59,007 nucleotides of DNA, from the NCBI GenBank assembly GCA_030531905.1, contig JAUNMG010000006.1, positions 1 to 59,007 on the forward strand, in the 5' to 3' direction. Origin of the DNA: a bacterium. Its GTDB lineage: Bacteria; Bacillota_I; Bacilli_A; RF39; UBA660. The translations under genes were made by a program, and so were the position numbers. The stretch's first letter is position 1, and each line of letters begins with the position of its first letter. The notes beneath the pieces were generated by a model. It was not told where the DNA came from, searched no databases, and was given only the letters and a program-made list of their open reading frames with translations. Of this stretch, positions 3,102 to 37,916 are shown piece after piece.

Positions 3102-3344
3102 ATGCTTAATAGAATAAAAGACTATATTAATGATAAAGAGTTTAGAATGACTATATTTACAGATAGAATTCATATTATTAATTATTTACAAATTTTATCC
3201 ATTGAAGATGAGCGAGTAGCTTTTTTAACTAATAAAGGAAGAATTATTATAAAAGGTAATAATTTATGTTTAAATAAACTACTAGATGATGAGGTATTAG
3301 TAAGTGGATTTGTTTCTAATATAGAGGTGGATTTCAATGACTAA
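3102..3344 (+). CDS. yqfC: YabP/YqfC family sporulation protein
   Basis: 80 aa, IHIINYLQILSI..I.IKGNNL.LNKLLDDEVLVSG pattern; directly upstream of yqfD. Confidence 0.75.
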   Translation: MLNRIKDYINDKEFRMTIFTDRIHIINYLQILSIEDERVAFLTNKGRIIIKGNNLCLNKLLDDEVLVSGFVSNIEVDFND

Positions 3345-4521
3345 TAAATATAAGTTATTAATAGTAGGTAAAAATCCAAAACGTTTTCTTGATAACTTAA
3401 TTTCTTTAAAAATATCATTGTATGATGTCAAATTAACTGATAAAGAACTAACTATAGTAGTAGATTTAGATGATTATGATAAAATATTAAAGTTAAAAAC
3501 TTCTTATAAAATAAAAGTAATTGATTATTATGGATTAGTTAAGTATGAGAATATTTTAAAAAAATATAATGTTTTTTTTATATGTTTAATTATAGGTTTG
3601 GTTTTAATTAAAGTTTTATCTTCTATTATATTTGATATTGATATAGAACATCCTAAAAGTGAAATTAGAGAACTAGTACTTGCGGATTTAGAAGAGTTTG
3701 GTATTTCTAAATATCATTTTAAATTTAGTTATGATGAAAAAGAAAAGATAATTAAAAAAATTCTTCATAAAGAAACAGATAGATTAGAATGGTTGGAAAT
3801 AGATAGTATTGGTACAAAATATGTAGTAAAAGTAGAAGAACGTATTAAAAATGATCCCAAAATAGATAACACTTTTCAACATATAGTTGCTAAAAAGGAT
3901 GCGATGATACTTCAAATTCAAGCATCTTCTGGTGAAATTAAAGTTAGTAAAAATGACTATGTAAAAAAAGGGGATATTCTAATTAGTGGTTTTATTACCA
4001 AAGATGAAGAAATAAAGAAAAAAGTAAAAGCTATTGGAACGGTTTATGGAGAAGTTTGGTATCAAGCAGAAATAACACTTCCAAAAGTTTATAAAGAAAT
4101 AAAATATACTAAGAATAGTAAGAAGAGATTCCAAGTTAAATTTTTATCACATGATTTTCTATTATTTGATTTTAAACCATATAAAACATATGAAAGTAGT
4201 AATATAACTCTTCTAGAAAATAGACTTTTGCCAATGAGTTTTAATTATTCAAAAGTAGGCGAAACTAAAGAGATAACTAAAAGATATACTGGAACTAAAG
4301 GAGAAAAAGAAGCTTTAAAATTAGCAGAGAAAAATCTAAAGAAGAAACTTAGTGTAAATGATTCTATTATTTCTAAAAAAGTTTTGAAAAAGACAGAGAA
4401 AGATAGTAAAATAATAGTAGATATATTTTTTAAAGTAAAAGAAGATATAACAGATACAGTAAATATCGATAATATAGATATAACAAAACAAGAAGGTGTA
4501 AAGGATGAATCAAGTAACTAA
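3337..4521 (+). CDS. yqfD: Sporulation protein YqfD (stage IV family)
   Basis: One TM near aa 80-100, IVAKKDAMI..I.ASSG...V..GDILISG and V.A.G.VYG.VWY motifs; overlaps yqfC. Confidence 0.8.
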   Translation: MTNKYKLLIVGKNPKRFLDNLISLKISLYDVKLTDKELTIVVDLDDYDKILKLKTSYKIKVIDYYGLVKYENILKKYNVFFICLIIGLVLIKVLSSIIFDIDIEHPKSEIRELVLADLEEFGISKYHFKFSYDEKEKIIKKILHKETDRLEWLEIDSIGTKYVVKVEERIKNDPKIDNTFQHIVAKKDAMILQIQASSGEIKVSKNDYVKKGDILISGFITKDEEIKKKVKAIGTVYGEVWYQAEITLPKVYKEIKYTKNSKKRFQVKFLSHDFLLFDFKPYKTYESSNITLLENRLLPMSFNYSKVGETKEITKRYTGTKGEKEALKLAEKNLKKKLSVNDSIISKKVLKKTEKDSKIIVDIFFKVKEDITDTVNIDNIDITKQEGVKDESSN

Positions 4522-9716: not shown

Positions 9717-11080
9717 CAATGGAAAAATTAGTAAATTATGCTAAACAATATGGATATATCTTTCAAGGAAGTGAAATATATGGAGGACTTGCAAATACTT
9801 GGGATTATGGTCCATTAGGAAAAGAATTAAAAGATAATATTAAAAATGCATGGCATAAAAAATTTATTCAAGAAAATAGATATAATTATGGATTAGATGC
9901 TGCTATACTTATGAATCCAGAAGTGTGGGTAGCAAGTGGACATGTCGCAAGTTTTTCTGATCCTTTAATAGATTGTAAAAATTGTAAAACACGTCATCGT
10001 GCAGATAAATTAATTGAAGAATTTACTAAGGGTGAAGAAACAGGTGATGGTTGGAGTAATGAAAAATTAGAAGAATTTATCAAAGAAAACAATATTACTT
10101 GTCCTCATTGTGGTAAGAGTGATTTCACATCAATTAGACAATTTAACTTATTATTTGAAACTCATATGGGTGTTACTAATGATAGTCAAAGTAAAGTTTA
10201 TTTAAGAGGAGAAACTGCTCAAGGAATATTTGTTAACTTTTCTAATGTATATCGTTCTATGAGAGCAAAATTACCATTTGGTATTGGACAAGTTGGTAAA
10301 GCATTTAGAAATGAAATTACTCCTGGTAACTTTATTTTTAGAACTAGAGAATTTGAACAAATGGAATTAGAATTTTTCTGTAAACCAGGAACTGATTTAG
10401 AATGGTTTGAATACTGGAAAAAATATTGTCTTGATTTTTTGAAAAGCTTAGGATTAAGAGAAGAAAATTTAAGATATAGAGATCATGAAAAAGATGAATT
10501 AGTATTCTATAGTGCTGCAACTACTGATATTGAATATAACTATCCAATGGGATGGGGAGAATTATGGGGAGTAGCAGATCGTACTAATTATGATTTAGGT
10601 GTACATGAGGCACATTCTAAGGCTGATTTAAAATACTTAGATCCAGAAACTAATGAGAAATATTTACCATATGTAATTGAACCATCTGTAGGAGTAGATA
10701 GACTTTTATTAGCTGTTTTAGCAGATAGCTATCACGTAGAAGAGTTAGAAAACGATACAAGAGAAGTATTAAAACTACATCCAGCTTTAGCGCCATTCAA
10801 AGTAGCTGTTTTACCACTTGTTAAAAAATATCATTCAGAAAAAGCAAATGAAGTATATCAAACTTTATCAAAATACTTTATGACTAGTTATGATGAGGCT
10901 GGTTCTATTGGAAAAAGATATAGAAGATGTGATGCTGTTGGAACACCATTTGCAATAACAATTGATGATGAGACAATAAATAATAATACAGTTACTGTAA
11001 GAGATAGAGATACTATGGAACAAATAACTCTAAACTTAGACGAAGTAGTAAAATATGTAGAAGAAAAGATTAAATTTTAG
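9704..11080 (+). CDS. glyQS: Glycine--tRNA ligase (homodimeric alpha2 type)
   Basis: [58 protein letters not shown], anticodon-binding domain. Confidence 0.97.
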
Positions 11081-11086
11081 GAGGTT

Positions 11087-11821
11087 ATGATGAAACCAGT
11101 AATTGGGGTACCATTGAGATATGAGCACTCTAAAGAAGGAAAGTGTATTCTTTATGTAACAGAAATGGTAAGAAGAACACTTCAAAAAGCAGGAGGAGAT
11201 GTTTTTGTTATACCTCCAGTTCAAGATGTTAACTATATGGATACAAGAGGTAATGAATTTGCCGAACTTACTTTAGAAGAGAAAAAAATAATTAATGATA
11301 ATTTAAATAAATGTGATGGATTATTTTTACCAGGAGGAGTTAAATTTACTCCCTATGATAGATATATGCTTGAATGCGCTATTGAAAAAAAGATACCAAC
11401 ATTAGGTGTTTGCTTAAGTATGCAAATGATGAGTTGCTATCAAGAAGATGTAAAAACAGAAATTAATGAAACAGAAATAAATCATGATCAGGAAAATTAT
11501 GATATCTTAACTCATAAGATATATATAAATGAAAATTCTAAACTTTTTGAAATTGTTGGTGAAACAGAAATTATGGTTAATAGTTTTCATAAATATCATG
11601 CTTTAGAAAATCACATTTATAAAACAGTTGCAACAAGTGAAGATGGATTAATAGAGGGAATAGAATATCCAGCAAATTTTTTCAATATAGGTTTACAATG
11701 GCATCCGGAAATTAGCTATGACTTTGATGAAAATTCAAAAAAAATAATAGATTATTTTATTAACGAAACTGAGAAATTCCAGCTAAAAAGGATAGATTCT
11801 ATTAAAGAAAAAGCAGTGTAG
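11087..11821 (+). CDS. Peptidase C26 / gamma-glutamyl-GABA hydrolase family glutamine amidotransferase
   Basis: [16 protein letters not shown] nucleophile, VNSFH, GLQWHPE. Confidence 0.9.
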   Translation: MMKPVIGVPLRYEHSKEGKCILYVTEMVRRTLQKAGGDVFVIPPVQDVNYMDTRGNEFAELTLEEKKIINDNLNKCDGLFLPGGVKFTPYDRYMLECAIEKKIPTLGVCLSMQMMSCYQEDVKTEINETEINHDQENYDILTHKIYINENSKLFEIVGETEIMVNSFHKYHALENHIYKTVATSEDGLIEGIEYPANFFNIGLQWHPEISYDFDENSKKIIDYFINETEKFQLKRIDSIKEKAV

Positions 11822-13986: not shown

Positions 13987-15207
13987 ATGAGAGAATTAGA
14001 AGAAAAATATATTGAATTAATTTTAAGAAAATGTCTTAATTTTGATGATAGTAAATCTTTAATGATAAATTGTGATTTTAAAGAACATATTCCTTTCGCA
14101 TTAAGGGTTAAAGAAAAAGCAAATGAGATGGGAATATTTGATGTTTGTATAAATGTTAATGATTTAGATGAAATTCATGATTATTTAAAGAATACTTCAG
14201 TTGAAGATATAAAATTGAATCCACTTATCGATAGAACAAATTGGAATACTTATGCCTTAAAAGGAGGTTCTTTGTTATTCTTAACTTCTACAGTTCCAGG
14301 TTTAATGAATGATATTGGTGAAGATAAAATAGCAAAATGGGTAAGTGAAAGAGAAAAAACCACACCATATTATAGAAAAAATGTCAGTAAATATACTTTT
14401 CCTTGGACAATAGTTGCCCTTCCTAATGAAAGATGGGCTAAGACAGTCTTCAAGGATGATGATGAAGCATATCAAAAATTATTCTATATGATTATGGAAA
14501 TGTGTATGGTTGATAGAGATGATCCTATTGCTGCTTGGGATGAATATATAGAAACTAATAACAAGTATAAAGAAAAATTAAATAATCTTAACATTAGAAA
14601 GATGCATTATACAAATTCACTTGGTACAGATTTATATATCGAGTTACCCGATAAAAATATCTGGATGAATTTGGATAAGCAAAATGATTTAGGAAGATCT
14701 TTAATTGTAAATATGCCAAGCTATGAAATATTTACTTCACCTGACTATAGAAAAACAAATGGAATTGTCTATGCCAGTAAACCTTTATATTATAATGATG
14801 TTTGTATTAATGATTTTTACATAGAGTTTAAAGATGGCAAGGCTGTTTCTTGCTATGCAAAAGAAGGACAAAAGACTTTGGAAAAAATAATCACCTCTGA
14901 AGAGAAAGCAGCTTATTTAGGAGAAGTAGCATTAGTTGCATATGATTCACCTATATCTAATATGGGTTTAGTCTTTAATAGAACATTATTCGATGAAAAT
15001 GCTTCATGTCATCTAGCCCTTGGGGGAGGTTTTGTTAAAAGTATATATAATAGCAAAAACTTAAGTGAAGAAGAATTAATTAAAAAAGGCTTAAATATAT
15101 GTGCTACTCATGTTGACTTTATGATAGGAACAAGTGACTTACAAATAGAAGCTGAAACGAATCAAGGTAAGAAATTAATTTTTAAAAAGGGAAATTTTAA
15201 TCTCTAA
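13987..15207 (+). CDS. Aminopeptidase, M29 family (AmpS/PepS)
   Basis: NMPSYEIFTSP, LGEVALV, LFDENASCHLALG, HVDFMIG. Confidence 0.93.
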   Translation: MRELEEKYIELILRKCLNFDDSKSLMINCDFKEHIPFALRVKEKANEMGIFDVCINVNDLDEIHDYLKNTSVEDIKLNPLIDRTNWNTYALKGGSLLFLTSTVPGLMNDIGEDKIAKWVSEREKTTPYYRKNVSKYTFPWTIVALPNERWAKTVFKDDDEAYQKLFYMIMEMCMVDRDDPIAAWDEYIETNNKYKEKLNNLNIRKMHYTNSLGTDLYIELPDKNIWMNLDKQNDLGRSLIVNMPSYEIFTSPDYRKTNGIVYASKPLYYNDVCINDFYIEFKDGKAVSCYAKEGQKTLEKIITSEEKAAYLGEVALVAYDSPISNMGLVFNRTLFDENASCHLALGGGFVKSIYNSKNLSEEELIKKGLNICATHVDFMIGTSDLQIEAETNQGKKLIFKKGNFNL

Positions 15208-15222
15208 AATATGAAAAAAGTG

Positions 15223-15251
15223 TTGACTTTTAATAGCTTTAAGCATATAAT
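15223..15251 (+). promoter_or_regulatory. sigma-A promoter of the infC operon
   Basis: TTGACT, 17 nt, TATAAT. Confidence 0.8.
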
Positions 15252-15257
15252 TATATC

Positions 15258-15385
15258 AGTCAAGAAAAAGGAAAGCGATTTATATCCACCTGAGTAGCGA
15301 ATAGCACTAGGTAAAAAGCCAATTAATATAATTAAAATTATAGGTTTTTAAGTGGGTATAAATTTATATCCACTTTTCTTATTTT
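15258..15385 (+). promoter_or_regulatory. L20 leader (infC-rpmI-rplT attenuator)
   Basis: ATTTATATCCAC occurs twice, so AAGTGGGTATAAAT can pair with either copy (antiterminator versus terminator plus T run); CACCTGA motif; position before infC. Confidence 0.75.
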
Positions 15386-15400
15386 ATGGAGGTGTTAGTT

Positions 15401-15931
15401 ATCGCAAACAATAAAGATAACATGCTGATCAATGATCAGATTAAAGCTCGAGAAGTTTTAGTAATTGGGCCAAATGGTGAACAAGTAGGAGTAAAGTCTA
15501 TTGAAGATGCTAAGACTTTAGCAAATTATGCTTCTTTGGATTTAGTTCTTATTAGTCCTAATGCTAATCCGCCTGTTTGTAAAGTAATGGATTATAATAA
15601 GTTCCGTTATGAAAAACAAAAGAAAGCTAAGGAAGCATTAAAAAAACAAAAGGCTAATATGTCTGAGTTAAAGGAATTTCGCCTATCACCTGTAATTGAT
15701 ATTGGAGACTTTGAAACTAAACTTAGAAATGCTACTAAGTATTTACAAAAGGGTGACAAAGTTAAATTAACAATTAGATTCAAGGGTAGACAAATGGCTC
15801 ATACCGAATTAGGAAAAGAGGTTTTATTACGCTTTGCTTCAAAAGTAGAGAACTATGCTGAAGTAGGTGAAATGCCTAAGCTTGACGGTAGAACTATGAC
15901 AATGATGTTATTACCAAAGAAAGAAAAATAG
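15401..15931 (+). CDS. infC: Translation initiation factor IF-3 (probable ATC start)
   Basis: INDQIKAREV, PPVCKVMDY, KEFRLSP, FKGRQMAH; GGAGGTG lies 6 nt before ATC 15401. Confidence 0.95.
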   Translation: MANNKDNMLINDQIKAREVLVIGPNGEQVGVKSIEDAKTLANYASLDLVLISPNANPPVCKVMDYNKFRYEKQKKAKEALKKQKANMSELKEFRLSPVIDIGDFETKLRNATKYLQKGDKVKLTIRFKGRQMAHTELGKEVLLRFASKVENYAEVGEMPKLDGRTMTMMLLPKKEK

Positions 15932-15946
15932 TAGGAGGAAATAATT

Positions 15947-16135
15947 ATGCCAAAAATTAAAACACATAAAGGTAGTGCAAAAGTTTTTAGAACAAATAAA
16001 AACAAAGTTGTTAAAATTGGAAAACCAGGAAGTAGACATAATACTGGTTCTAAATCATCAAACTTCAATAGAAGTTGTAGAAAGGGATCTACTTTATCTA
16101 AAGCAGATTACAACAGATTAAAAAATATTATTTAA
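15947..16135 (+). CDS. rpmI: 50S ribosomal protein L35 (divergent)
   Basis: MPKIKTHKG start, 62 aa, between infC and rplT. Confidence 0.9.
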   Translation: MPKIKTHKGSAKVFRTNKNKVVKIGKPGSRHNTGSKSSNFNRSCRKGSTLSKADYNRLKNII

Positions 16136-16161
16136 TTTAGAAGTATTAAGGAGGAAATAAA

Positions 16162-16758
16162 ATGGCAAGAGTAAAGAATGGAGCTGTTACAAAAGCTCGT
16201 CATAAAAAAGTATTAAAACAAGCTAAAGGTTACTTTGGTAGTAAACATAGATTATATAAAACTGCTAAAGAACAATTAATGCATTCAGGTCAATATGCAT
16301 TTAGAGACAGAAAACAAAAGAAGAGAGATTTCAGAAAGTTATGGATTACAAGAATCAATGCTGCATGTCGTCAAAATGACATTAGTTATTCAAGATTTAT
16401 TGAAGGATTAACTAAAGCTGGTGTTGAAGTAAACCGTAAAATGTTATCAGAAATCGCTATCAGCAATCCAGAAGCATTTACTGAATTAGTAAAAGTTGCT
16501 CGTGATGGAAAAGCTGGAAAAGCAAAAGCAAACAAAACTGAAATTTTAAAAGAAGTTACTATTGAAGGAACAAAAGCAGTTAAGAAAGCTGATACTAAGA
16601 AAGTAGAAGCAAAAAAAGAAGAAAAGAAAGAAACTAAAAAAGAAGCAACAGATTATTCAAAAATGACAGTTGCAGAACTTAAAGAAGAAGCAAAAAAACA
16701 AAATATTAAAGGTGCTTCAACAATGAAAAAAGCTGAATTATTAGAAGCTTTAAAATAA
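16162..16758 (+). CDS. rplT: 50S ribosomal protein L20 with C-terminal K/E linker and Rho-N-like domain
   Basis: [43 protein letters not shown]; about 80 extra C-terminal residues. Confidence 0.95.
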
Positions 16759-16759
16759 T

Positions 16760-16850
16760 AAACATATTAGCGAATTTATCTACTTCGTGCCTTAAGGGTT
16801 GTAGGTATTAGAAACTAATAGAAGATGAAACGAAAAGGAGAAATTAAAAA
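16760..16850 (+). promoter_or_regulatory. Probable structured rpsB (S2) leader
   Basis: ATCTAC...GTAGGT stem enclosing CCTTAAGG, GAAGATGAA element, RBS AAAGGAG; no terminator visible after rplT. Confidence 0.4.
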
Positions 16851-17822
16851 ATGACAGTAATATCAATGAATTATTTATTAGAAGCTGGTGTACATTTCGG
16901 ACACCAAAAAAGAAGATGGAATCCAAAAATGAAGGAATACATCTATACAACACGTGATGATATTTATATTATCGATTTAGCTAAAACAGTTAAAAAATTA
17001 GAAGAAGCATATGAAGCTTTAAAACAAATCGCTACTGATGGTGGAAAGGTTTTATTTGTTGGAACTAAGAAACAAGCTCAAGAAGCAGTAGAAGAAGCTG
17101 CTGTTAGAACTAACATGTATTTCATGAATGAAAGATGGTTAGGTGGAACTTTAACTAACTTCAAGACAATAAGAAGTAGAATTAAAAGATTAGATGAAAT
17201 TGAAAAAATGGAAGCTGATGGTACTTTTGATTTATTACCTAAAAAAGAAGTAGTTAATATCAAAAAAGAATATGAAAAATTAAATAAAAACTTAAGAGGA
17301 ATCCGTGAGATGAAAAAAGCTCCACAAGCAATGGTTATTGTTGATCCTCGTAAAGAAGAAATCGCAATTAAAGAAGCTCATATTCTAGGAATCCCTGTAT
17401 TTGGTATAGTAGATACTAACTGTGATCCAGATGTTGTTGATTACGTTATTCCAGGAAACGATGATGCAGTTCGTGCTGTTAAATTAATCATAGGAGCACT
17501 TACTAACGCTATCGCTGAAGTTAATGGTAATGAAGTAATTGATTACGTAACAGAAGATGAAAAAACAAAAGATTTCAAAAAGAATTCAAAAAAATCTTTC
17601 AAAGAAGATAAGAAAGAATTCAAAAAAGAAGTAAAAGAAGAAAAAAAAGTTGTTAAAGAAGAAAAGAAGGAAGTAGAAGAAGTTAAAGAAATTTCAAAAG
17701 AAGAAACTACTGACTTATCTAGTCTTACTTTAGCTGACTTAAAAGCAAAAGCAAAAGAAGCTGGAATTAAAGGTTATTCTACTATGAAGAAAAGTGAATT
17801 AGTAGAAGCATTAAATAAATAA
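16851..17822 (+). CDS. rpsB: 30S ribosomal protein S2 with C-terminal K/E linker and Rho-N-like domain
   Basis: [39 protein letters not shown]; long C-terminal extension. Confidence 0.97.
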
Positions 17823-17846
17823 GGATAATTAATAATTGTCCTTTTT
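17821..17846 (+). terminator. Terminator/attenuator hairpin between rpsB and tsf
   Basis: AAGGATAATT-AAT-AATTGTCCTT followed by TTT. Confidence 0.5.
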
Positions 17847-17868
17847 CTAAATATAAGGAGGATTTAAA

Positions 17869-18741
17869 ATGTATAAAGCAAGTGATGTAAAAGAATTAAG
17901 AGAAAAGACTCAAGCTGGTATGCTTGATTGTAAAAAAGCTTTAGAAGCATGTGAAGGAGATATGGATAAAGCAATCGACTGGTTACGTGAAAAGGGTATC
18001 TCTAAAGCTGCTAAAAAAGAAGGAAGAGTAGCTGCTGAAGGTGTATGCCAAATTATAACTTCAGGAAATGAAGCTGTTATCTTAGAAGTTAACTCTGAAA
18101 CTGATTTCGTTGCAAAAAATGAAGAATTTACTAAATTCGTTGATTATGTAGCAAATCTTATTTTAAAAAATGATTTCAGTGATGTTGATTCATTATTAAA
18201 CTATAATGATGAAGGAACAACTGTTAATGACAAATTAATTAACATTATTTCAACTATTGGAGAAAAAATAAGCATTAGACGTTTTAAGAAGGTAGTTAAA
18301 AACGATAATGAAGTGTTTGGAGCATACAAACATATGGGTGGTAGAATTGGTAGTTTAGTTGTTTTAGAAAACACTACTGAAGAAGTTGCTAAAGATGTAG
18401 CAATGCATGCTGCTGCTATGAATCCAACTGCTATAACAAGAGAAGAAGTTCCAGCTGAAATGGTTGAACATGAAGCTCACGTTATCAAAGAACAAGTTAT
18501 GCAAGAAGGAAAACCAGCTGAAATAGCTGAAAAAATGGTTACTGGTAGATTAAATAAATTCTATAAAGAAATTTGTTTAGAAGAACAACCATTTGTTAAA
18601 GATAGTGGTATGACAGTTCTTGATTATGTTAAAAATAATGGTGGTAAGATTGTTTCAATGACTAGATTTGAAGTAGGAGAAGGAATCGAAAAGAAAGAAG
18701 AAAACTTTGCAGAAGAAGTAATGAACCAAATTAAAGGATAA
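17869..18741 (+). CDS. tsf: Elongation factor Ts
   Basis: VKELREKTQAGMLDCKKAL, EVNSETDFVAKN, MHAAA, RFEVGEG. Confidence 0.97.
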   Translation: MYKASDVKELREKTQAGMLDCKKALEACEGDMDKAIDWLREKGISKAAKKEGRVAAEGVCQIITSGNEAVILEVNSETDFVAKNEEFTKFVDYVANLILKNDFSDVDSLLNYNDEGTTVNDKLINIISTIGEKISIRRFKKVVKNDNEVFGAYKHMGGRIGSLVVLENTTEEVAKDVAMHAAAMNPTAITREEVPAEMVEHEAHVIKEQVMQEGKPAEIAEKMVTGRLNKFYKEICLEEQPFVKDSGMTVLDYVKNNGGKIVSMTRFEVGEGIEKKEENFAEEVMNQIKG

Positions 18742-18744
18742 TTA

Positions 18745-19287
18745 ATGAAAAAATTAGTAGTAATTTTTCTAATACTTATTATATTTACAACAGGTTGTTC
18801 TGTTAAAAAAGTAGAAGAATTAACAGATAGTGAAAAGTTTGCTAAAGAATATAATGTTAGTAAAAATAATCCATTTGTTTATTCTAGTTATAAAGATATA
18901 GTTACTATTTTAGAAAGTGGAACAGGACTTATTTTACTTGCTAATTCTGATGATGAAGGAAGTATAGAAGCTGTAGGACTAATAAATAGTGAAGCTAAAA
19001 AATTATCTATTAAAGAAATTAATTATTATAATCTTGATACTTTAAAGAATAAAGAAAAAGGTAAATATAAAAGACTAAAAATGGAACTAAAAGAAGATAT
19101 TTCTGATTTTGATTTTGAAATTCCTCTTTTAGTTGCTGTTAAAGATGGTAAGATAATAAACTACAGTAATTGTTTTTCAAAAGAAGAGGAATTATCTAGT
19201 GAATATCTTACTAAGAAAAGATTAAAAAGTATTAGAGAAAAGTATTCTGAAATATTGAGTTATAAAGAGAATTCTAAAAATGAGTAG
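18745..19287 (+). CDS. Lipoprotein with a thioredoxin-like fold lacking CxxC
   Basis: Lipobox (IFTTG-C), NPFVY..Y..I...L.SGTG and IP.LVAVKDGKII; no Cys pair at the expected site. Confidence 0.5.
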   Translation: MKKLVVIFLILIIFTTGCSVKKVEELTDSEKFAKEYNVSKNNPFVYSSYKDIVTILESGTGLILLANSDDEGSIEAVGLINSEAKKLSIKEINYYNLDTLKNKEKGKYKRLKMELKEDISDFDFEIPLLVAVKDGKIINYSNCFSKEEELSSEYLTKKRLKSIREKYSEILSYKENSKNE

Positions 19288-19362
19288 AATTCTTTTTTCT
19301 TGCTATTTTTTATCTTTAATTATATAATGTAGTTATATTAAGAAGATAAGGAGTTGTTATGT

Positions 19363-20406
19363 ATGAACAAAGATGATGAAATGAGTAATACATTTGTTGC
19401 TGAAGTAGGCCAAAAGTCAGCAATATTTAATCCAGAAAACAATGAACCAATAGAAAGTTTGGAAGAAACTACCTTTCCAGAAGTTAAAATTGATCCACCA
19501 AAGGATATGCCTAGTGTTTTAGAAAATGATAAACCAGATTTGACAGAAAAAGAACAAGAATTAGAAAAAAGTGATAATAATAATGATGAGGAGGATGATG
19601 AATTTCTAGAATCTAAGAAAAAGAAAAAAAATAAAAAGAGAAATCCATTTATAACATTTCTAATTATAATTGTTTGTTTAGCTTTGGGAGCTTTTGGAAG
19701 TTATTATTATTTTGAAATTTTTAATAAAACTAGTGATGATAAAACTTCAACAGAACAAAAAAATACAAATAATAGTGTGGTTCAAAAAGAAGATACAGAA
19801 GAAATTTTACCAACAAGCACTTATATTGAAAAGTTAATTGAAAAATATGATACAACTGAAACTCAATATAAACCAGTTATTTATCAAAATTTATATTCTA
19901 AAGATAAAATTATGGCTTCTGATTTAGATAATGAATATGTTCAAAAATTAGGTGTTGCTAATATAAGAAATAGTTTCTATTTTACTGAGGATGAACTAAA
20001 TAACAGTTTAGCTGAATTATTTGGAAAAGATAAATTTAAGGCAGTAGAAAAGGAAATAGAATTTACAAATGATTGTAGCACTTATAAATATAATAATAAA
20101 TCATATACACTAGAAGTTAATACTGGATGTGGTGGAACATCTACTTTAACAATGAAAAGAAAAATAGTTAAAGCAGAAAAAAAAGATAATAATTTGTATG
20201 TTAATGTAGCAGTTGCACTAACAGATGGAAATAAAATTTATAAAGGTTATGATGGAGAAAAAGCAACAGATGAACTTGCAGATTATACATACCAAACATT
20301 TGATATTGAAAAAGATTATGCTAAATTAAATCAATATAAATATACTTTTGATTATGATAAAGATAATAATAATTATTATTTAGAAAGTATAGAATTAGTT
20401 AAGTAG
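19363..20406 (+). CDS. Single-pass membrane protein of unknown function
   Basis: Acidic N-terminal region, KKKKKNKKR, one TM, then a soluble domain with a C..C pair. Confidence 0.6.
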   Translation: MNKDDEMSNTFVAEVGQKSAIFNPENNEPIESLEETTFPEVKIDPPKDMPSVLENDKPDLTEKEQELEKSDNNNDEEDDEFLESKKKKKNKKRNPFITFLIIIVCLALGAFGSYYYFEIFNKTSDDKTSTEQKNTNNSVVQKEDTEEILPTSTYIEKLIEKYDTTETQYKPVIYQNLYSKDKIMASDLDNEYVQKLGVANIRNSFYFTEDELNNSLAELFGKDKFKAVEKEIEFTNDCSTYKYNNKSYTLEVNTGCGGTSTLTMKRKIVKAEKKDNNLYVNVAVALTDGNKIYKGYDGEKATDELADYTYQTFDIEKDYAKLNQYKYTFDYDKDNNNYYLESIELVK

Positions 20407-21021: not shown

Positions 21022-21067
21022 AAATACTAGTAAATTTGTACTTTTTGTGATATAATACAGCTATCGA

Positions 21068-21292
21068 TGTTGATTAAGAAGTAGTAATATAATGATTATT
21101 TTTAGAGAGTCTGTGGTTGGTGGAAACAGATAATATAATTATATGAATTCGTCTTAGGAGTCCTTATTAATAGTAAGCGTAATTCTTGCGTTAAAAGAAT
21201 ATAAGTGTATAGTAAGTAATAAATAACTATAAACTAAGGTGGTACCGCGATAATTCGTCCTTAGATTATAGTTATTTTTTTTGTAAGGAGGA
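21068..21292 (+). promoter_or_regulatory. T-box riboswitch (Phe, specifier UUC)
   Basis: AGAGAG and GGTGGAAA Stem I motifs, TTC at 21148-21150, T-box AACTAAGGTGGTACCGCG with partner CGTCCTTAG; upstream of pheS. Confidence 0.92.
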
Positions 21293-25499: not shown

Positions 25500-26582
25500 A
25501 TGAAAGTAGTTATCTGCGCTGGAGGTACAGGAGGACATATTTATCCTGCTTTAGCAATAATTAATAAAATTAAAGAAAAAGAACCACTTAGTCAGTTTTT
25601 ATATATAGGTACAACAAATAGAATGGAAGCAGAATTAATTCCAAAATTAGGCATAAAATTTGTTGGAATTGAAATGGAAGGCTTAGATAGAAAGAATGTA
25701 TTTAAAAATATAGGAGTTTTTATTAAATATAAGAAAGCAATCAAAGAAGCAAAAAAAGCAATTAAAGAATTTGATCCTCATATAGTTATTGGAGCTGGTG
25801 GATATATTACAGCACCAGTTTTGATAGCGGCTCATAAACTAAAATATAAAACTCTAATTCATGAGCAAAATTCAGTGCCAGGAGTTTCTAACAAATTGCT
25901 ATCAAGATATGCTGATAAAATTTGTGTTTCTCTACCTAGTACGGTAAAGGATTTTCCAAAAGATAAAGTTATTTATACTGGTAATCCTAGAAGTGAAGAA
26001 ATTATTTCTACAAAAAAGATAGACAAAGAACAGTTTGGGTTAAATAAAGATAAAAAACTAGTAGTTATCGTTATGGGTTCTCTTGGTTCTACTACTATGA
26101 CAGAAAAACTAAAGCAATTAATTCCCGCTTTTAATAATAAAAATTATCAAGTTATTATTATTACAGGTAAAAAATACTATGATTCATATAATAATATTTC
26201 TATTCCTAAGAATGTAGCATTGCTTCCTTTCTTAGATAATCTTATTGGACTTTTGAAATCAACTGATTTATTAATTTCAAGAGCAGGAGCATCAACTATT
26301 GCAGAAATAACTGCAATAGGATTACCTTCAATACTTGTTCCTTCTCCTTATGTAACTAATAATCACCAATATAAAAATGCCAAAGAACTAGAAGAATTAG
26401 GAGCTGTAGAGTTAATAGAAGAAGATGATTTTTTTTATACAAGTATTATTCCTAGAATTGATGCTATTTTAGAAAATAAAGTTTTATATAATAAAATGAA
26501 AGAAAGTTCTTTGAAATTAGGGGTTAGAGATTCAGCTACTAGAATTTATCAAGAAATTAAGAAAATTGTTAAGGATGATTAG
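25500..26582 (+). CDS. murG: MurG glycosyltransferase
   Basis: GGTGGHIYP, GAGGY, HEQN, GNP, GSLGS, RAGAST. Confidence 0.96.
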   Translation: MKVVICAGGTGGHIYPALAIINKIKEKEPLSQFLYIGTTNRMEAELIPKLGIKFVGIEMEGLDRKNVFKNIGVFIKYKKAIKEAKKAIKEFDPHIVIGAGGYITAPVLIAAHKLKYKTLIHEQNSVPGVSNKLLSRYADKICVSLPSTVKDFPKDKVIYTGNPRSEEIISTKKIDKEQFGLNKDKKLVVIVMGSLGSTTMTEKLKQLIPAFNNKNYQVIIITGKKYYDSYNNISIPKNVALLPFLDNLIGLLKSTDLLISRAGASTIAEITAIGLPSILVPSPYVTNNHQYKNAKELEELGAVELIEEDDFFYTSIIPRIDAILENKVLYNKMKESSLKLGVRDSATRIYQEIKKIVKDD

Positions 26583-26585
26583 AAG

Positions 26586-27491
26586 ATGAGTGAATGGTTA
26601 ACAGATTTAAAACAACTTAATATAGGGAAAATTGAAACAGATACTTCCTTAAAAAAATTTACTACTTATAGAGTAGGTGGAAAAGCCAGATGTGTTATTT
26701 ATCCTAAAAACACAGAAAATCTAGTTAAGTTAATGAAATTTATTAGATCAAGAAATATAAAATATAAGATGTTAGGAAATGGTTCAAATTTGATTTTTAG
26801 TGATGATTTATTTGATGGCATTTTAATTAAACTAACTGAATTTGATAATATTGAAGTAACTAATAATAAAATTAAAGTAGGGGCAGGTTATTCTTTAATG
26901 AAGCTTTCTCGTGTTGCTTTAAAAAATTCATTAACAGGACTAGAGTTTGCTGCTGGTATTCCTGGAACTGTTGGAGGAGCAATATTCATGAATGCAGGTG
27001 CTTATAAAAGCGACATGGGTTATATTGTCCAATCAGTAAAAGTTTTAACAAAAGATTTTAAAATAGTAGAACTTGAAAATAAAGAAATGAATTTCCATTA
27101 TCGTACATCTTTCCTTCAAAAACATCCAGATTATATTTGCTTAGAGGCAATTATTCGTCTAGAAAAAGGAAAGAAAGATGCAATAGAAGAAGTAATGAAA
27201 AGTCGTTTAAAAAGAAGAGTAGAGTCTCAACCCCTTAATTATCCAAGTGCAGGAAGTGTTTTTAGAAATCCAACTGGTATGTTTGCTGGAGAACTAATTG
27301 AAAAGTGTGGTCTAAAAGGATATAAATTAGGTGGGGCTATGATAAGTGATAAGCATGCTAACTTTGTTATTAATACGGGTGATGCAAAAGCATCTGATGT
27401 AAGAGATTTAATTAATATAGCAAGAGAAAAAGTAAAAGCAGAATATAATGTTGATTTAAGAGTAGAACAAGAATTTGTAAATTGGGAGTAA
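26586..27491 (+). CDS. murB: UDP-N-acetylenolpyruvoylglucosamine reductase
   Basis: LGNGSNL, GIPGTVGGAIFMNAGAY, PSAGSVFRNP, HANF. Confidence 0.96.
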   Translation: MSEWLTDLKQLNIGKIETDTSLKKFTTYRVGGKARCVIYPKNTENLVKLMKFIRSRNIKYKMLGNGSNLIFSDDLFDGILIKLTEFDNIEVTNNKIKVGAGYSLMKLSRVALKNSLTGLEFAAGIPGTVGGAIFMNAGAYKSDMGYIVQSVKVLTKDFKIVELENKEMNFHYRTSFLQKHPDYICLEAIIRLEKGKKDAIEEVMKSRLKRRVESQPLNYPSAGSVFRNPTGMFAGELIEKCGLKGYKLGGAMISDKHANFVINTGDAKASDVRDLINIAREKVKAEYNVDLRVEQEFVNWE

Positions 27492-28285: not shown

Positions 28286-29527
28286 ATGAATGACTATTAT
28301 ACTAGTATTGAGCTTGGTACTGATACTATTAAGATACTAGTTTGTCAAAAGGTAGATGATGATTTTCATGTTATTGCCCAAGTGTGTGAAAAATCACAAG
28401 GAATAAAAAAGGGAATTATTGTTGATACGAAACAGGCTATAACATCTGTAAAAAAGGCTCTTAAAAAGATAAATGAAATGCTTCAGATAAAAATTACTAA
28501 GGCAATAGTGTGCATTCCTGCAATTGACTGTAGAATGGATATTGTTGTAGGAAGTTGTGATGTTATTGACTATCAAGAAATAACTGGTGAAGATGTTTCA
28601 AATGTTTTAAAAGATGCTTTAATAGGTCATGTCTATGATGATGAAGAACTTATTACTGCAGTACCAATAAGTTTTAAAGTAGATGAAGAAGATAATATAA
28701 AAGATCCTAAAGGAATGGCTGGTAAATCTATTGAGACAAGAGTTTTAATGACAACTTCTCCTAAAGATTTAGTATACAAAATACTTGAAGTATTAAAATT
28801 AAGCGGTATTGATGCAATTGATGTTTGTTATTCTACTACTGGGGATTATTTTGCTATTAGAAATGATAATCTTGACAAACAAGTAGGAGCAATTGTTAAT
28901 ATTGGAGAAGATAAGACTACTATTTCTGTTTTTAATAAAGGGATTATGATTAAAAATAAAGTTATCAGTGTTGGAAGTAGAAATATAGATAATGATATAT
29001 CTTATATTTACAAAACAAGTAAGGAAGATTCTAGATTTTTAAAAGAAAATTTTGTTGTGTCTTCTGCAAGGTATGCAGATGTTAACGAAACTCACAAAGT
29101 TAGGTTAGATACTGATGAAATAAAAGAAATTAGTCAACTAGAATTGTCAAAGGTAGTAGAAGCAAGACTAATAGAAATATTAAATTTGATAAAAAATGAG
29201 TTAAAAAACTTAACAAAACGAGAAATACGTTATATAATTATAACAGGTGGTGTATCAGAACTTGCAGGATTCCAATATTTATTAGAAGATGAGCTTGGTA
29301 TAAAAGCAAGAGTATGCAATATGACTACCATGGGAATTAGACATAATAAATATAGTAGTGTTTTTGGAATTATTAAGTATTTTGATACTAAACTTAATTT
29401 ACGTGGAAAACAAACTAATATGTTGAGTGAGTCTGATATAGAAAGTTTAATAACAATTAGAGAAACAAAAGGAAGTAATGACAATAATATTATAAATAAA
29501 GTATTCGGTCGTTTTTTTGAAAATTAA
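28286..29527 (+). CDS. ftsA: Cell division protein FtsA
   Basis: IELGTDTIK, GIKKGIIVD, VNIGEDKT, IITGGVSELAG; directly before ftsZ. Confidence 0.9.
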   Translation: MNDYYTSIELGTDTIKILVCQKVDDDFHVIAQVCEKSQGIKKGIIVDTKQAITSVKKALKKINEMLQIKITKAIVCIPAIDCRMDIVVGSCDVIDYQEITGEDVSNVLKDALIGHVYDDEELITAVPISFKVDEEDNIKDPKGMAGKSIETRVLMTTSPKDLVYKILEVLKLSGIDAIDVCYSTTGDYFAIRNDNLDKQVGAIVNIGEDKTTISVFNKGIMIKNKVISVGSRNIDNDISYIYKTSKEDSRFLKENFVVSSARYADVNETHKVRLDTDEIKEISQLELSKVVEARLIEILNLIKNELKNLTKREIRYIIITGGVSELAGFQYLLEDELGIKARVCNMTTMGIRHNKYSSVFGIIKYFDTKLNLRGKQTNMLSESDIESLITIRETKGSNDNNIINKVFGRFFEN

Positions 29528-29539
29528 GGAGGAACAGGT

Positions 29540-30685
29540 ATGATAGGCGGATTAGAAATGGATCAGTTAGCCAAGATTAAGGTAATAGGTCTTGGTGGTG
29601 GTGGCGGTAACGCTATCAATAGAATGGTTGAATCTGGTGTTAAGGGAGTAGAATTTATTGCAGCTAACACAGATTTACAAGTATTAAACAGTTCTAAAGC
29701 AGATGTTAAAATCCAAATAGGAGCATCTCTTACAGATGGATTAGGAGCGGGAGCAAGACCAGAGATTGGTAAAGAAGCTGCTGTTGAATCTAAGAAAGAA
29801 ATAGAAGATGCTTTAGCAGGAGCAGATATGGTATTTGTTACTTGTGGAATGGGTGGAGGAACCGGAACAGGTGCAGCTCCAGTAGTTGCAGAAATTGCTC
29901 AAGCTTTAGGCGCACTTACAGTAGCAATTGTTACTAAACCTTTCTCATTCGAAGGTAAGAAGAGAATGCAAAATGCTTTAGAAGGATTAGAAGAATTAAA
30001 GAAACATGTAGATACTTTAATCGTTATTCCAAATGATAGATTAAGAGAAATTATTGATAAAACAACACCAATGCTTGAAGCATTTAAAGAAGTTGATAAC
30101 GTATTACGTCGTGGTGTTCAATCAATTTCTGATTTGATTGCTGTAGTTGGACTTGTTAACCTAGACTTTGCAGATGTTAAAGCAGTAATGGAAAAGAGTG
30201 GTCATGCTATTATCGGTATTGGTATCGGTATGGGAGAAGATAGAGCAATAGAAGCTGCTAAACAGGCAGTATCATCACCACTACTTGAAACATCTATTGA
30301 AGGAGCAACTGATGCAATTATTAATATTACAGGTGGAGTTAACTTAACATTATTTGAAGCAGAACAAGCAGCAGAAGTTGTACGTGCAGCAGCAAATACT
30401 GATATTAACACAATCTTTGGTTCTGTTATTAATGAAAACTTATCTGATGAGGTAATTGTTACCGTTATAGCTACAGGTTTTGATAAAAAAGGTAGAGAAA
30501 TAGAAAGTAGCCAGCCTGTATATAGCAATGTTCAACAAACAAGAAGAACTCAAAGAGTTGAACCAGAAATGGTATATCAATCTACACCAACTAGTGAAGT
30601 TTTAACACCAATTGGTGATGATGATTCTTCATCAGATGATTCAGAATTTGATTTACCTCCGTTTTTAAAGGATAGAAATTACTAA
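29540..30685 (+). CDS. ftsZ: Cell division protein FtsZ
   Basis: GGGGGNA, GGGTGTG tubulin signature, NLDFADV, C-terminal DLPPFL. Confidence 0.98.
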
Positions 30686-37304: not shown

Positions 37305-37916
37305 GTGATGCAAATGACAGATAATAAAGAAGAAGTTAAAGAAGAAATAAAACAAGAAGAGAAACATGAAGATTGCAAATGCAAAGAAAATGATAAAAAA
37401 TGTTGTCATGAACATAAAAAGCATAATCATGATAATAATAAATTAAAAGAAAAAGAAGCAGAAATTGAAAAATTAAAGAAAGAGTTAGAAGAATCTGTTA
37501 AGAAGGTACAATATGCTCAAGCAGAACTTGTAAATTATCGTAAAAGAAAAGATGATGAAGTAGCTAGTTATAAGAAATATTGTAATCAGGATTTAATTAC
37601 AGAACTGATTCCAATAGTTGATAACTTTGAAAGAGCAATTAGTCTAGATGATAATAATTTAACTGATGAGTTATCAAAATTCTTACATGGATTTAAGATG
37701 ATGTATGCATCTCTAACTGAGGTTTTAAGAAAGTTTGGAGTTGAAGAAATCTCACGTGCTGGAGAAGTATTTGATTCTAATTTAGAAGAAGCATTAATGA
37801 CTGATAATATTGATTCTGTTGATGATGATATCGTAACAGAAGTATTATTAAAAGGTTATAAATTGAAAGACAGGGTAATAAGACCTGCTTCAGTAAAAAT
37901 AAATAAAAAAGATTAA
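37305..37916 (+). CDS. grpE: Nucleotide exchange factor GrpE
   Basis: AEL.NYRKR, LIPIVDNFERA, GY.L.DRVIRPASVKI. Confidence 0.95.
   Translation: MMQMTDNKEEVKEEIKQEEKHEDCKCKENDKKCCHEHKKHNHDNNKLKEKEAEIEKLKKELEESVKKVQYAQAELVNYRKRKDDEVASYKKYCNQDLITELIPIVDNFERAISLDDNNLTDELSKFLHGFKMMYASLTEVLRKFGVEEISRAGEVFDSNLEEALMTDNIDSVDDDIVTEVLLKGYKLKDRVIRPASVKINKKD

Follow-up and report, generated by a model that had tools for sequence, protein, structure and literature searches.

Why should two ribosomal proteins, one from each subunit, end in the same small domain? The question is raised by a 59,007-nucleotide stretch of DNA from an uncultured gut bacterium (assembly GCA_030531905.1, contig JAUNMG010000006.1, GTDB order RF39; the whole stretch is hereafter the window), in which the adjacent genes for bL20 and bS2 both run well beyond the usual size. 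Coordinates are window positions unless a locus is named, and the genes and elements from 15267 to 18741 lie on the + strand. rplT (16162–16758, an open reading frame (ORF) of 198 residues) encodes a bL20 core (residues 1–117, 16162–16512; PF00453 positions 1–107 of 107, E = 2.7e-48), a 45-residue linker rich in K, E, T, V and A with net positive charge (16513–16647, delimited by composition and orthologue length range) and a 36-residue C-terminal tail of Rho_N/SAP type (16648–16758 with the stop codon, residues coded by 16648–16755; Pfam and AlphaFold2). rpsB (16851–17822, an ORF of 323 residues) has the same plan, with a bS2 core (residues 1–232, 16851–17546; PF00318 positions 1–215 of 216, E = 2.8e-100), a 54-residue, roughly neutral linker (17547–17708, delimited by composition, orthologue length range and tandem repeats) and a 37-residue Rho_N-type tail (17709–17822 with the stop codon, residues coded by 17709–17819; Pfam, AlphaFold2 and Foldseek). 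The Ribosomal_L20 and Ribosomal_S2 models of Pfam are matched end to end ahead of the extensions, so that these follow complete canonical proteins, as the original prediction from the DNA letters had stated; the tail sequences and coordinates that it gave agree exactly with the ORF calls. The full-length PF00453 match, the infC–rpmI–rplT context and an L20-leader-like element upstream identify bL20, and the full-length PF00318 match with tsf directly downstream identifies bS2; tail-less L20 orthologues stop at about residue 117–120. A recount returned the same 22 identical residues out of 36 between the two tails (ungapped) as first reported, and BLASTP, run as a single pairwise comparison, found 24 of 40 residues of the two C-termini identical (E = 3e-11). 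A 31-residue database protein (P0272, MTVAELKEE...LEALK) corresponds to translation of the L20 tail starting at an internal methionine (16666–16758); it looks like a by-product of gene calling and is not evidence for a separate small protein.

A repeated segment invites the suspicion of an assembly, frameshift or read-through artefact, and the tail does yield chimeric short contigs in public assemblies, together with one internally duplicated S2 (P0001, 524 residues, which we rejected as a misassembly). The window ORFs, however, are continuous, and the identical 198-residue L20 occurs on independent contigs from three other samples, a tail-bearing S2 following in both of those that extend past rplT. 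Contigs from four independent runs span the L20 tail and the S2 core without a coding indel; their sole indel is intergenic, a 1-nucleotide insertion polymorphism at 16845 in the rplT–rpsB spacer, present in three of the four runs. A strain variant (locus L161, 4436–5344) encodes an S2 of 302 residues that differs by a 21-residue in-frame deletion in the linker, its core and tail being 100% identical. The best 120 S2 homologues (76–100% identity) all carry PF07498 with PF00318 and hold 49 distinct, near-invariant tail sequences, and the architecture is kept in dozens of species-level genomes. The artefact explanation, frameshift and read-through included, is refuted.

What kind of domain is it? 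Against gathering scores of 24.9 bits for Rho_N (PF07498), 23.9 for SAP (PF02037) and 28.9 for HeH/LEM (PF12949), Rho_N is passed by both bL20 (30.7 bits for the whole protein, 35.8 for the tail alone) and bS2 (39.3 and 46.0 bits), which bears out the Rho_N pattern that the original prediction had noted. SAP is passed by bL20 (24.1 bits whole, 29.0 tail alone) and is borderline in bS2 (16.5 whole, 24.8 tail alone), Rho_N outscoring it on both proteins, and both tails stay under the HeH/LEM cut-off (16.9–23.3 bits). Beyond these three families, Pfam matches only Ribosomal_L20 or Ribosomal_S2 in the two proteins. A profile built from nine tails matches, among Protein Data Bank sequences, the Ku70 SAP domain (1jjr, E = 9e-6), residues 58–89 of Mycobacterium tuberculosis Rho (7oqh) and a second Rho (8hsj); against the six-frame translation of the window, a separate profile made from its two tails returned no copy besides those on bL20 and bS2.

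The predicted structures agree. AlphaFold2 models the bS2 tail as helix–extended loop–helix (helices 8–18 and 28–36; predicted local distance difference test (pLDDT) score 89), and in the full-length bL20 model the tail helices fall at 170–179 and 190–197 (pLDDT 81–83). Foldseek places the tail model closest to the N-terminal domain of E. coli Rho (2a8v and 1a8v; query-normalised template modelling score (TMq) 0.82, root mean square deviation (rmsd) 0.9 Å), then to the SAP subdomain of DNA-bound FAN1 (31% identity, 0.8 Å) and to CDNF and MANF through their SAP-like C-terminal domains; the E-values, which are above 1, are not significant for a 37-residue query. The helix-extension-helix, SAP/LEM-like fold originally proposed is thus the one that the model adopts. 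Membership of the tails in the Rho_N/SAP/HeH superfamily of helix–extended loop–helix domains is well supported by the profiles, and the predicted structure is consistent with it.

The Rho N-terminal subdomain is profile-homologous to the tails, has the same geometry (0.9 Å over 34 positions to E. coli Rho) and shares with them the motif L..L...A...G....M(K/R)K.(E/D)L(I/V).AL. It differs in placement: in Rho it stands at the N-terminus of a helicase and is followed by an oligonucleotide/oligosaccharide-binding (OB) fold and an ATPase, whereas the tails sit at the C-terminus of a ribosomal protein on a long disordered tether. That bL20 and bS2 might themselves be Rho factors is ruled out; a Pfam scan of both proteins found neither the Rho_RNA_bind OB fold nor the RecA-type ATPase.

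How far does the architecture reach? A species-level scan with the window L20 returned 80 loci, 53 of which encode an L20 ending in the tail, which gives at least 53 species-level genomes. Their records are named as uncultured gut 'Bacilli', 'Erysipelotrichaceae', 'Tenericutes' or 'Mollicutes' metagenome-assembled genomes (MAGs), Clostridium sp. CAG:433, Candidatus Ventrenecus avicola, an Acholeplasmataceae MAG and a Candidatus Izimaplasma MAG. The L20 of ordinary Bacillales, Paenibacillus, Peptoniphilus and Erysipelotrichaceae is of canonical length, about 118 residues, and lacks the tail. The best 120 homologues of the Acholeplasmataceae L20 all have exactly one C-terminal tail, marked as PF07498 in precomputed annotation; among them are proteins of Acholeplasmataceae, Izimaplasma and 'Tenericutes bacterium MZ-XQ' and 'MO-XQ' whose NCBI name reads just '50S ribosomal protein L20'. 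Tailed L20 and S2 are present in this uncultured gut bacterium and in hundreds of relatives.

The two tails do not always travel together. A tail-bearing S2 directly follows a tailed L20 in 24 loci, and in six more S2 is tailed while L20 is not. Some L20 proteins (L025, L035, L036, L043, L048, L054 and L057, with ORFs starting near position 10001 of the locus) carry instead a long basic, K/T/A-rich low-complexity extension with no domain, ending for example in ...KKTTTKKTTKKEDK. This basic extension stands beside a domain-bearing S2 in L025, L035, L036, L043 and L057; no tailed S2 was detected near it in L048 or L054. At the sixth locus with a tailed S2 and tail-less L20 (L024), L20 ends in a short K/E/V-rich stub. 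In the MZ-XQ type of genome rpsB is not near rplT, and some tailed S2 genes have no L20 gene within about 3 kb on their upstream side. The original prediction had called the appendage lineage-specific and kept in relatives, which the 53 or more species-level genomes and the best 120 homologues of each protein uphold; its emphasis on adjacent genes holds for the window, but adjacency is not required, as tails persist where the two genes are not neighbours. In these sequence comparisons the appendage is a conserved, lineage-specific feature across low-GC, small-genome Bacilli and Mollicutes relatives.

Are bL20 and bS2 its only hosts? A scan of JGI/ENA metagenome contigs for the motif [VI]KG[YA]STMK turned up 108 tail-bearing ORFs at 80 loci: 68 were S2, 33 were L20 and seven were other, five of these seven being cut off at contig ends. 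Two candidate third hosts, L109 (with a membrane-protein N-terminus) and L125, were rejected as chimeric S2 genes, their unrelated N-termini lying just upstream of tsf in the place of rpsB. Within about 1.3 Mb flanking L20 in the 80 genomes there were no other tail-bearing ORFs. An exhaustive search of protein representatives with the tail profile returned 5330 matches at E ≤ 1e-3, the wider Rho_N/SAP family being large; the best 150 of these are multi-repeat Rho_N/SAP proteins and short ORFs, and a Pfam scan of 95 of the best 150 found no ribosomal family. The search added no credible third host. Ten short 'novel fusions' (for example TopA-like or GpsA-like N-termini joined to the tail) were discarded as assembly chimeras, being singletons on contigs of 569–1190 bp. 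Short singleton chimeras in the metagenomes, P0179, P0181 and P0200 among them, join the tail and linker to TopA-like, GpsA-like, EF-Ts-fragment and membrane-protein N-termini; the repeated tail and its low-complexity linker evidently cause chimeric assemblies. Within these sampled limits the tail subfamily appears dedicated to bL20 and bS2.

The relation between the two copies was followed in 25 genomes with both tails (24 relatives and the window). There are two tail variants, the second of which is one residue shorter and reads ...INVTGMKKAEIIEAL. L003, L004, L006, L011, L014 and L019 have the second variant on L20 and the first on S2; in other genomes the second variant is on both proteins, and several genomes have nearly identical tails. 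Similarity between L20 and S2 tails is 0.70 within the same genome versus 0.59 between genomes (permutation p ≤ 1e-4). In L001, L005, L010, L015 and L022 the L20 tail is nearer to the S2 tail of its own genome than to the L20 tail of any other genome compared, while the L20 cores of these five are 90–97% identical to the cores of other genomes. The clearest case is L001, where the 3' ends of rplT (about 10380–10564) and rpsB (about 11370–11577) agree at 175 of 188 nucleotides, from the interior of the linker to the stop codon; shared tracts of 100–150 nucleotides at 81–91% identity occur in L005, L009, L010, L015 and L016. The window tails have diverged (61% residue identity when gapped, 22/36 ungapped), and their best DNA tract matches at 46 of 57 positions. 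These patterns indicate repeated gene conversion between rplT and rpsB, essential genes about 1 kb apart, and adjacency of the two genes goes together with exchange of tail sequence. Such homogenisation within genomes implies that the two tails are functionally interchangeable.

The linkers evolve in quite another way. Their lengths and K+E contents were taken from 53 bL20 and 31 bS2 orthologues, and identity, charge and proline figures from the subsets with a delimitable core (49 and 22, respectively). Length ranges over 11–55 residues in bL20 and 35–102 in bS2; K+E makes up about 49% and 57%, and mean net charge is about +3 and −1. Length and sequence are variable and composition constant, with V and T abundant, and proline occurs in 22 of 49 bL20 and 17 of 22 bS2 linkers, so that the flexible Lys/Glu-rich linker of the original prediction is an apt description. 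A rigid ER/K single alpha-helix was considered and rejected: AlphaFold2 predicts a linker helix in bL20 (residues 125–154) at low confidence (pLDDT 42–63), proline is frequent, and V and T are abundant. The linkers are better described as disordered polyampholyte tethers than as single alpha-helices. Comparable K/E-rich stretches in the window are confined to bL20, bS2 and the N-terminus of one ORF at 37305–37916. In rpsB, 17601–17690 is built from AAG/GAA-rich tandem repeats, which are imperfect and have 21-, 30- and 33-nucleotide periods; linker length therefore shifts by slippage, only in multiples of three.

Could the extensions be a tolerated, drifting accretion, such as a solubility or charge-balancing tail spread by recombination between neighbouring genes? 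Slippage in the linkers would suit this, as would the loss of the L20 domain or its replacement by low-complexity basic sequence in some relatives, and gene conversion can keep two copies similar without selection. Mean pairwise identities for core, linker and tail are, however, 0.77, 0.33 and 0.60 in bL20 and 0.84, 0.36 and 0.58 in bS2, which sets tail conservation of 0.58–0.60 against 0.33–0.36 in the linker, and the tail is near-invariant among S2 orthologues of 76–100% identity. All linker indels among orthologues keep the frame, and the same architecture persists across gut Bacilli, Acholeplasmataceae and Izimaplasma. Judged by orthologue identity, the tail domain is more constrained than its tether, and we regard mere accretion as highly improbable.

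What might a constrained domain do on a loose tether? By analogy with known relatives of the fold, we favour a reading in which the tails are low-specificity nucleic-acid-binding modules tethered to each subunit, to which we give a probability of roughly 0.5. The original prediction had offered tethering to RNA or RNA polymerase, RNase recruitment and hibernation contacts as possible roles. bL20 and bS2 have each gained a C-terminal module, made up of a disordered K/E-rich tether of about 45–55 residues and a domain of 36–37 residues. bS2 lies on the solvent side of the 30S subunit, next to where mRNA exits and bS1 docks, and the globular part of bL20 lies on the 50S surface; from such surface positions each subunit would carry one small domain sweeping a radius of roughly 10–15 nm. 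SAP domains bind DNA, and by analogy with isolated Rho-N and SAP domains the tail domain would bind nucleic acid with low sequence specificity. It may in this way raise the local affinity of the ribosome for mRNA or nascent RNA, or for nucleoid DNA. The nearest precedent is Arabidopsis RHON1, whose C-terminal Rho-N motif of 40 residues, when isolated, shifts several RNAs, among them fragments of 16S and 23S rRNA (PMC3458557). The swap of the L20 domain for a plain basic tail in some relatives fits a nucleic-acid-directed, charge-based role. A more specific picture, which we offer only tentatively, is that the tethered domains hold translating ribosomes on mRNA or nascent transcripts, or else on the nucleoid and the machinery of transcription, as a substitute for bS1-type capture or as a coupling device, with the copies kept interchangeable by gene conversion.

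Several observations weigh against nucleic-acid binding. Tail net charge is only about +1 to +2, which is modest for a nucleic-acid binder, and the domain assignment behind the analogy rests mainly on sequence profiles because the Foldseek E-values are not significant. The relatives with a basic tail show that the fold is dispensable on L20. In Rho, it is chiefly the adjoining OB fold, not the helical subdomain, that contacts RNA, and the same small fold also makes protein–protein contacts, as the SAP-like domains of CDNF and MANF do with BiP.

These contacts of structural neighbours, made through protein-binding HeH/SAP-like folds, suggest a different role, in which the tails are protein–protein adaptors that bring a shared partner (such as an RNase or helicase, RNA polymerase or a Nus factor, a chaperone, or a factor for hibernation or dimerisation) to both subunits, or that link ribosomes tail to tail. 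One shared partner would favour the near-identical tails seen within several genomes, and the tail surface is strongly conserved despite its modest charge; RHON1, the closest C-terminal Rho-N analogue, acts in complex with RNase E (PMC3458557). Identity of the tails is nevertheless not required, as six genomes combine distinct variants on L20 and S2, and nucleotide identity that reaches into the linker points to gene conversion rather than to selection for a common interface. No candidate partner carries or flanks the domain in the L20 neighbourhoods examined. Adaptors of this kind strike us as rather unlikely.

Regulation offers another possible role, and here the gene neighbourhood matters. 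The order is infC, rpmI, rplT, rpsB, tsf, two ORFs with no family match, frr, a T-box leader and pheS–pheT, and infC (15386–15931), rpmI (15947–16135) and tsf (EF-Ts, 17869–18741, E = 3.9e-103), all assigned by NCBIfam, lack the tail. Upstream of infC are a promoter-like site (15223–15251, 11 of 12 matches), an L20-leader-like element (15267–15387; a sub-threshold match to Rfam RF00558 at 41 bits and E = 3.4e-6, the gathering score being 58.7) and, just ahead of infC, a terminator-like hairpin (15350–15375). The 15223–15387 region probably works as an L20-responsive attenuator like those of Firmicutes, serving an operon that now runs into rpsB. In the 92-nucleotide rplT–rpsB spacer (16759–16850) there is no terminator-like site, and the infC–rpmI–rplT and rpsB–tsf units therefore appear joined.

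In model bacteria both bL20 and bS2 regulate their own synthesis, translationally or transcriptionally, by binding the leaders of their mRNAs, and bL20 acts early in ribosome assembly. The tails might then serve ribosome biogenesis or autoregulation, an extra RNA-binding module aiding the capture of nascent rRNA or leader RNA. The leader-like element ahead of infC and the position of rpsB after rplT with no intervening terminator-like site would accord with this, as would the binding of the RHON1 Rho-N motif to rRNA precursor regions (PMC3458557). Yet two proteins with different RNA targets bear one and the same kind of tail, which points to a generic function; tails persist where rplT and rpsB are in different operons, and a long flexible tether is needless for a site that the core protein already recognises. 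We consider a dedicated role in biogenesis or autoregulation improbable.

How do the tailed proteins compare with known systems? RHON1 resembles the tailed proteins in having a Rho-N motif of about 40 residues at the extreme C-terminus of an otherwise unrelated protein, preceded by a highly charged stretch, in binding RNA including rRNA fragments, and in a role in bacterial-type organellar gene expression (PMC3458557). It is unlike bL20 and bS2 in being plant-only and non-ribosomal, in working with RNase E and in the acidic character of the upstream stretch; the likeness is that of a shared domain. The SAP domains of Ku70 (1jjr) and FAN1 resemble the tails by profile and superposition, whereas Ku70, FAN1 and the PIAS/SAF-A SAP proteins are eukaryotic DNA-repair or chromatin proteins that bind double-stranded DNA. 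In Ku70, too, a flexible C-terminal linker carries the SAP domain. On the ribosome itself the obvious comparison is bS1, a flexible, low-specificity RNA-binding arm that sits at bS2 near the mRNA exit and captures mRNA. An RNA-binding tail on bS2 would occupy the same place, a likeness in working only; bS1 is a separate protein made of OB-fold S1 domains, with no relation to the tails in sequence or fold, and we know of nothing bS1-like for bL20.

Terminal additions to ribosomal proteins have precedent closer to this lineage. For Mycoplasma pneumoniae, a preprint reports 'distinct extensions of ribosomal proteins' (bioRxiv 10.1101/2021.12.18.473270); like the tails, these are terminal additions on conserved ribosomal proteins of small-genome relatives of Bacilli. 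Compared with lineage-specific extensions in general, the addition described here is a recognisable folded domain, it is the same on one protein per subunit, and its copies exchange sequence. The Rho_N family and ribosomal-protein extensions are already known, and precomputed Pfam annotation already marks Rho_N together with L20 or S2; in the full-text literature, whose coverage is incomplete, we found no paper describing or interpreting a Rho_N/SAP domain on bacterial ribosomal proteins, RHON1 being the one relevant result, and none of relevance on bL20 or bS2 extensions.

The wider neighbourhood places these genes in their organism, which occurs in pig and other gut metagenomes. The G+C content of the window is low (about 21–32%), GC skew is strongly positive and genes lie mostly on the + strand. 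Between tsf and frr (18745–20406), the usual place of pyrH, are two ORFs with no NCBIfam match, also called in L161 and L162: the first, of 180 residues, has a lipoprotein-like N-terminus (MKKLVVIFLILIIFTTGC), and the second, of 350 residues, has a hydrophobic segment after an acidic N-terminal part. The T-box leader upstream of pheS–pheT lies at 21061–21265 (115.6 bits). NCBIfam likewise offers no match for a 406-residue ORF between a PgeF-like gene and infC (13987–15207). This ORF is missing from the gene calls of the otherwise collinear L161 (2135–2970) and L162, both of which have the identical L20 and, in a shorter gap, an ORF of 48 residues; the difference looks like strain-level gene loss or truncation. 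Further away (75–1487, 3337–4521, 25500–27491 and 28286–30685) are genes for an LCP-family transferase, a YqfD-like sporulation protein that scores under its family cut-off, murG, murB, ftsA and ftsZ. Related records are labelled 'Tenericutes' or 'Mycoplasma'. The presence of murG, murB, the LCP-family transferase, ftsA/ftsZ and the YqfD-like protein shows a walled organism rather than a classical mycoplasma.

It is rare for a bacterial ribosomal protein to gain a folded accessory domain, and here the same domain has been gained on both subunits across a broad, mostly uncultured gut and environmental group. In practical terms, the repeated tail yields chimeric metagenome contigs, and automatic annotation of its hosts says simply L20 and S2. 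In the concerted evolution of the tails, gene conversion between essential genes can be seen in a small and clean example. If the tails do bind RNA or DNA, they would represent a new link between the ribosome and its template or the nucleoid in small-genome organisms, and a natural recruitment arm.

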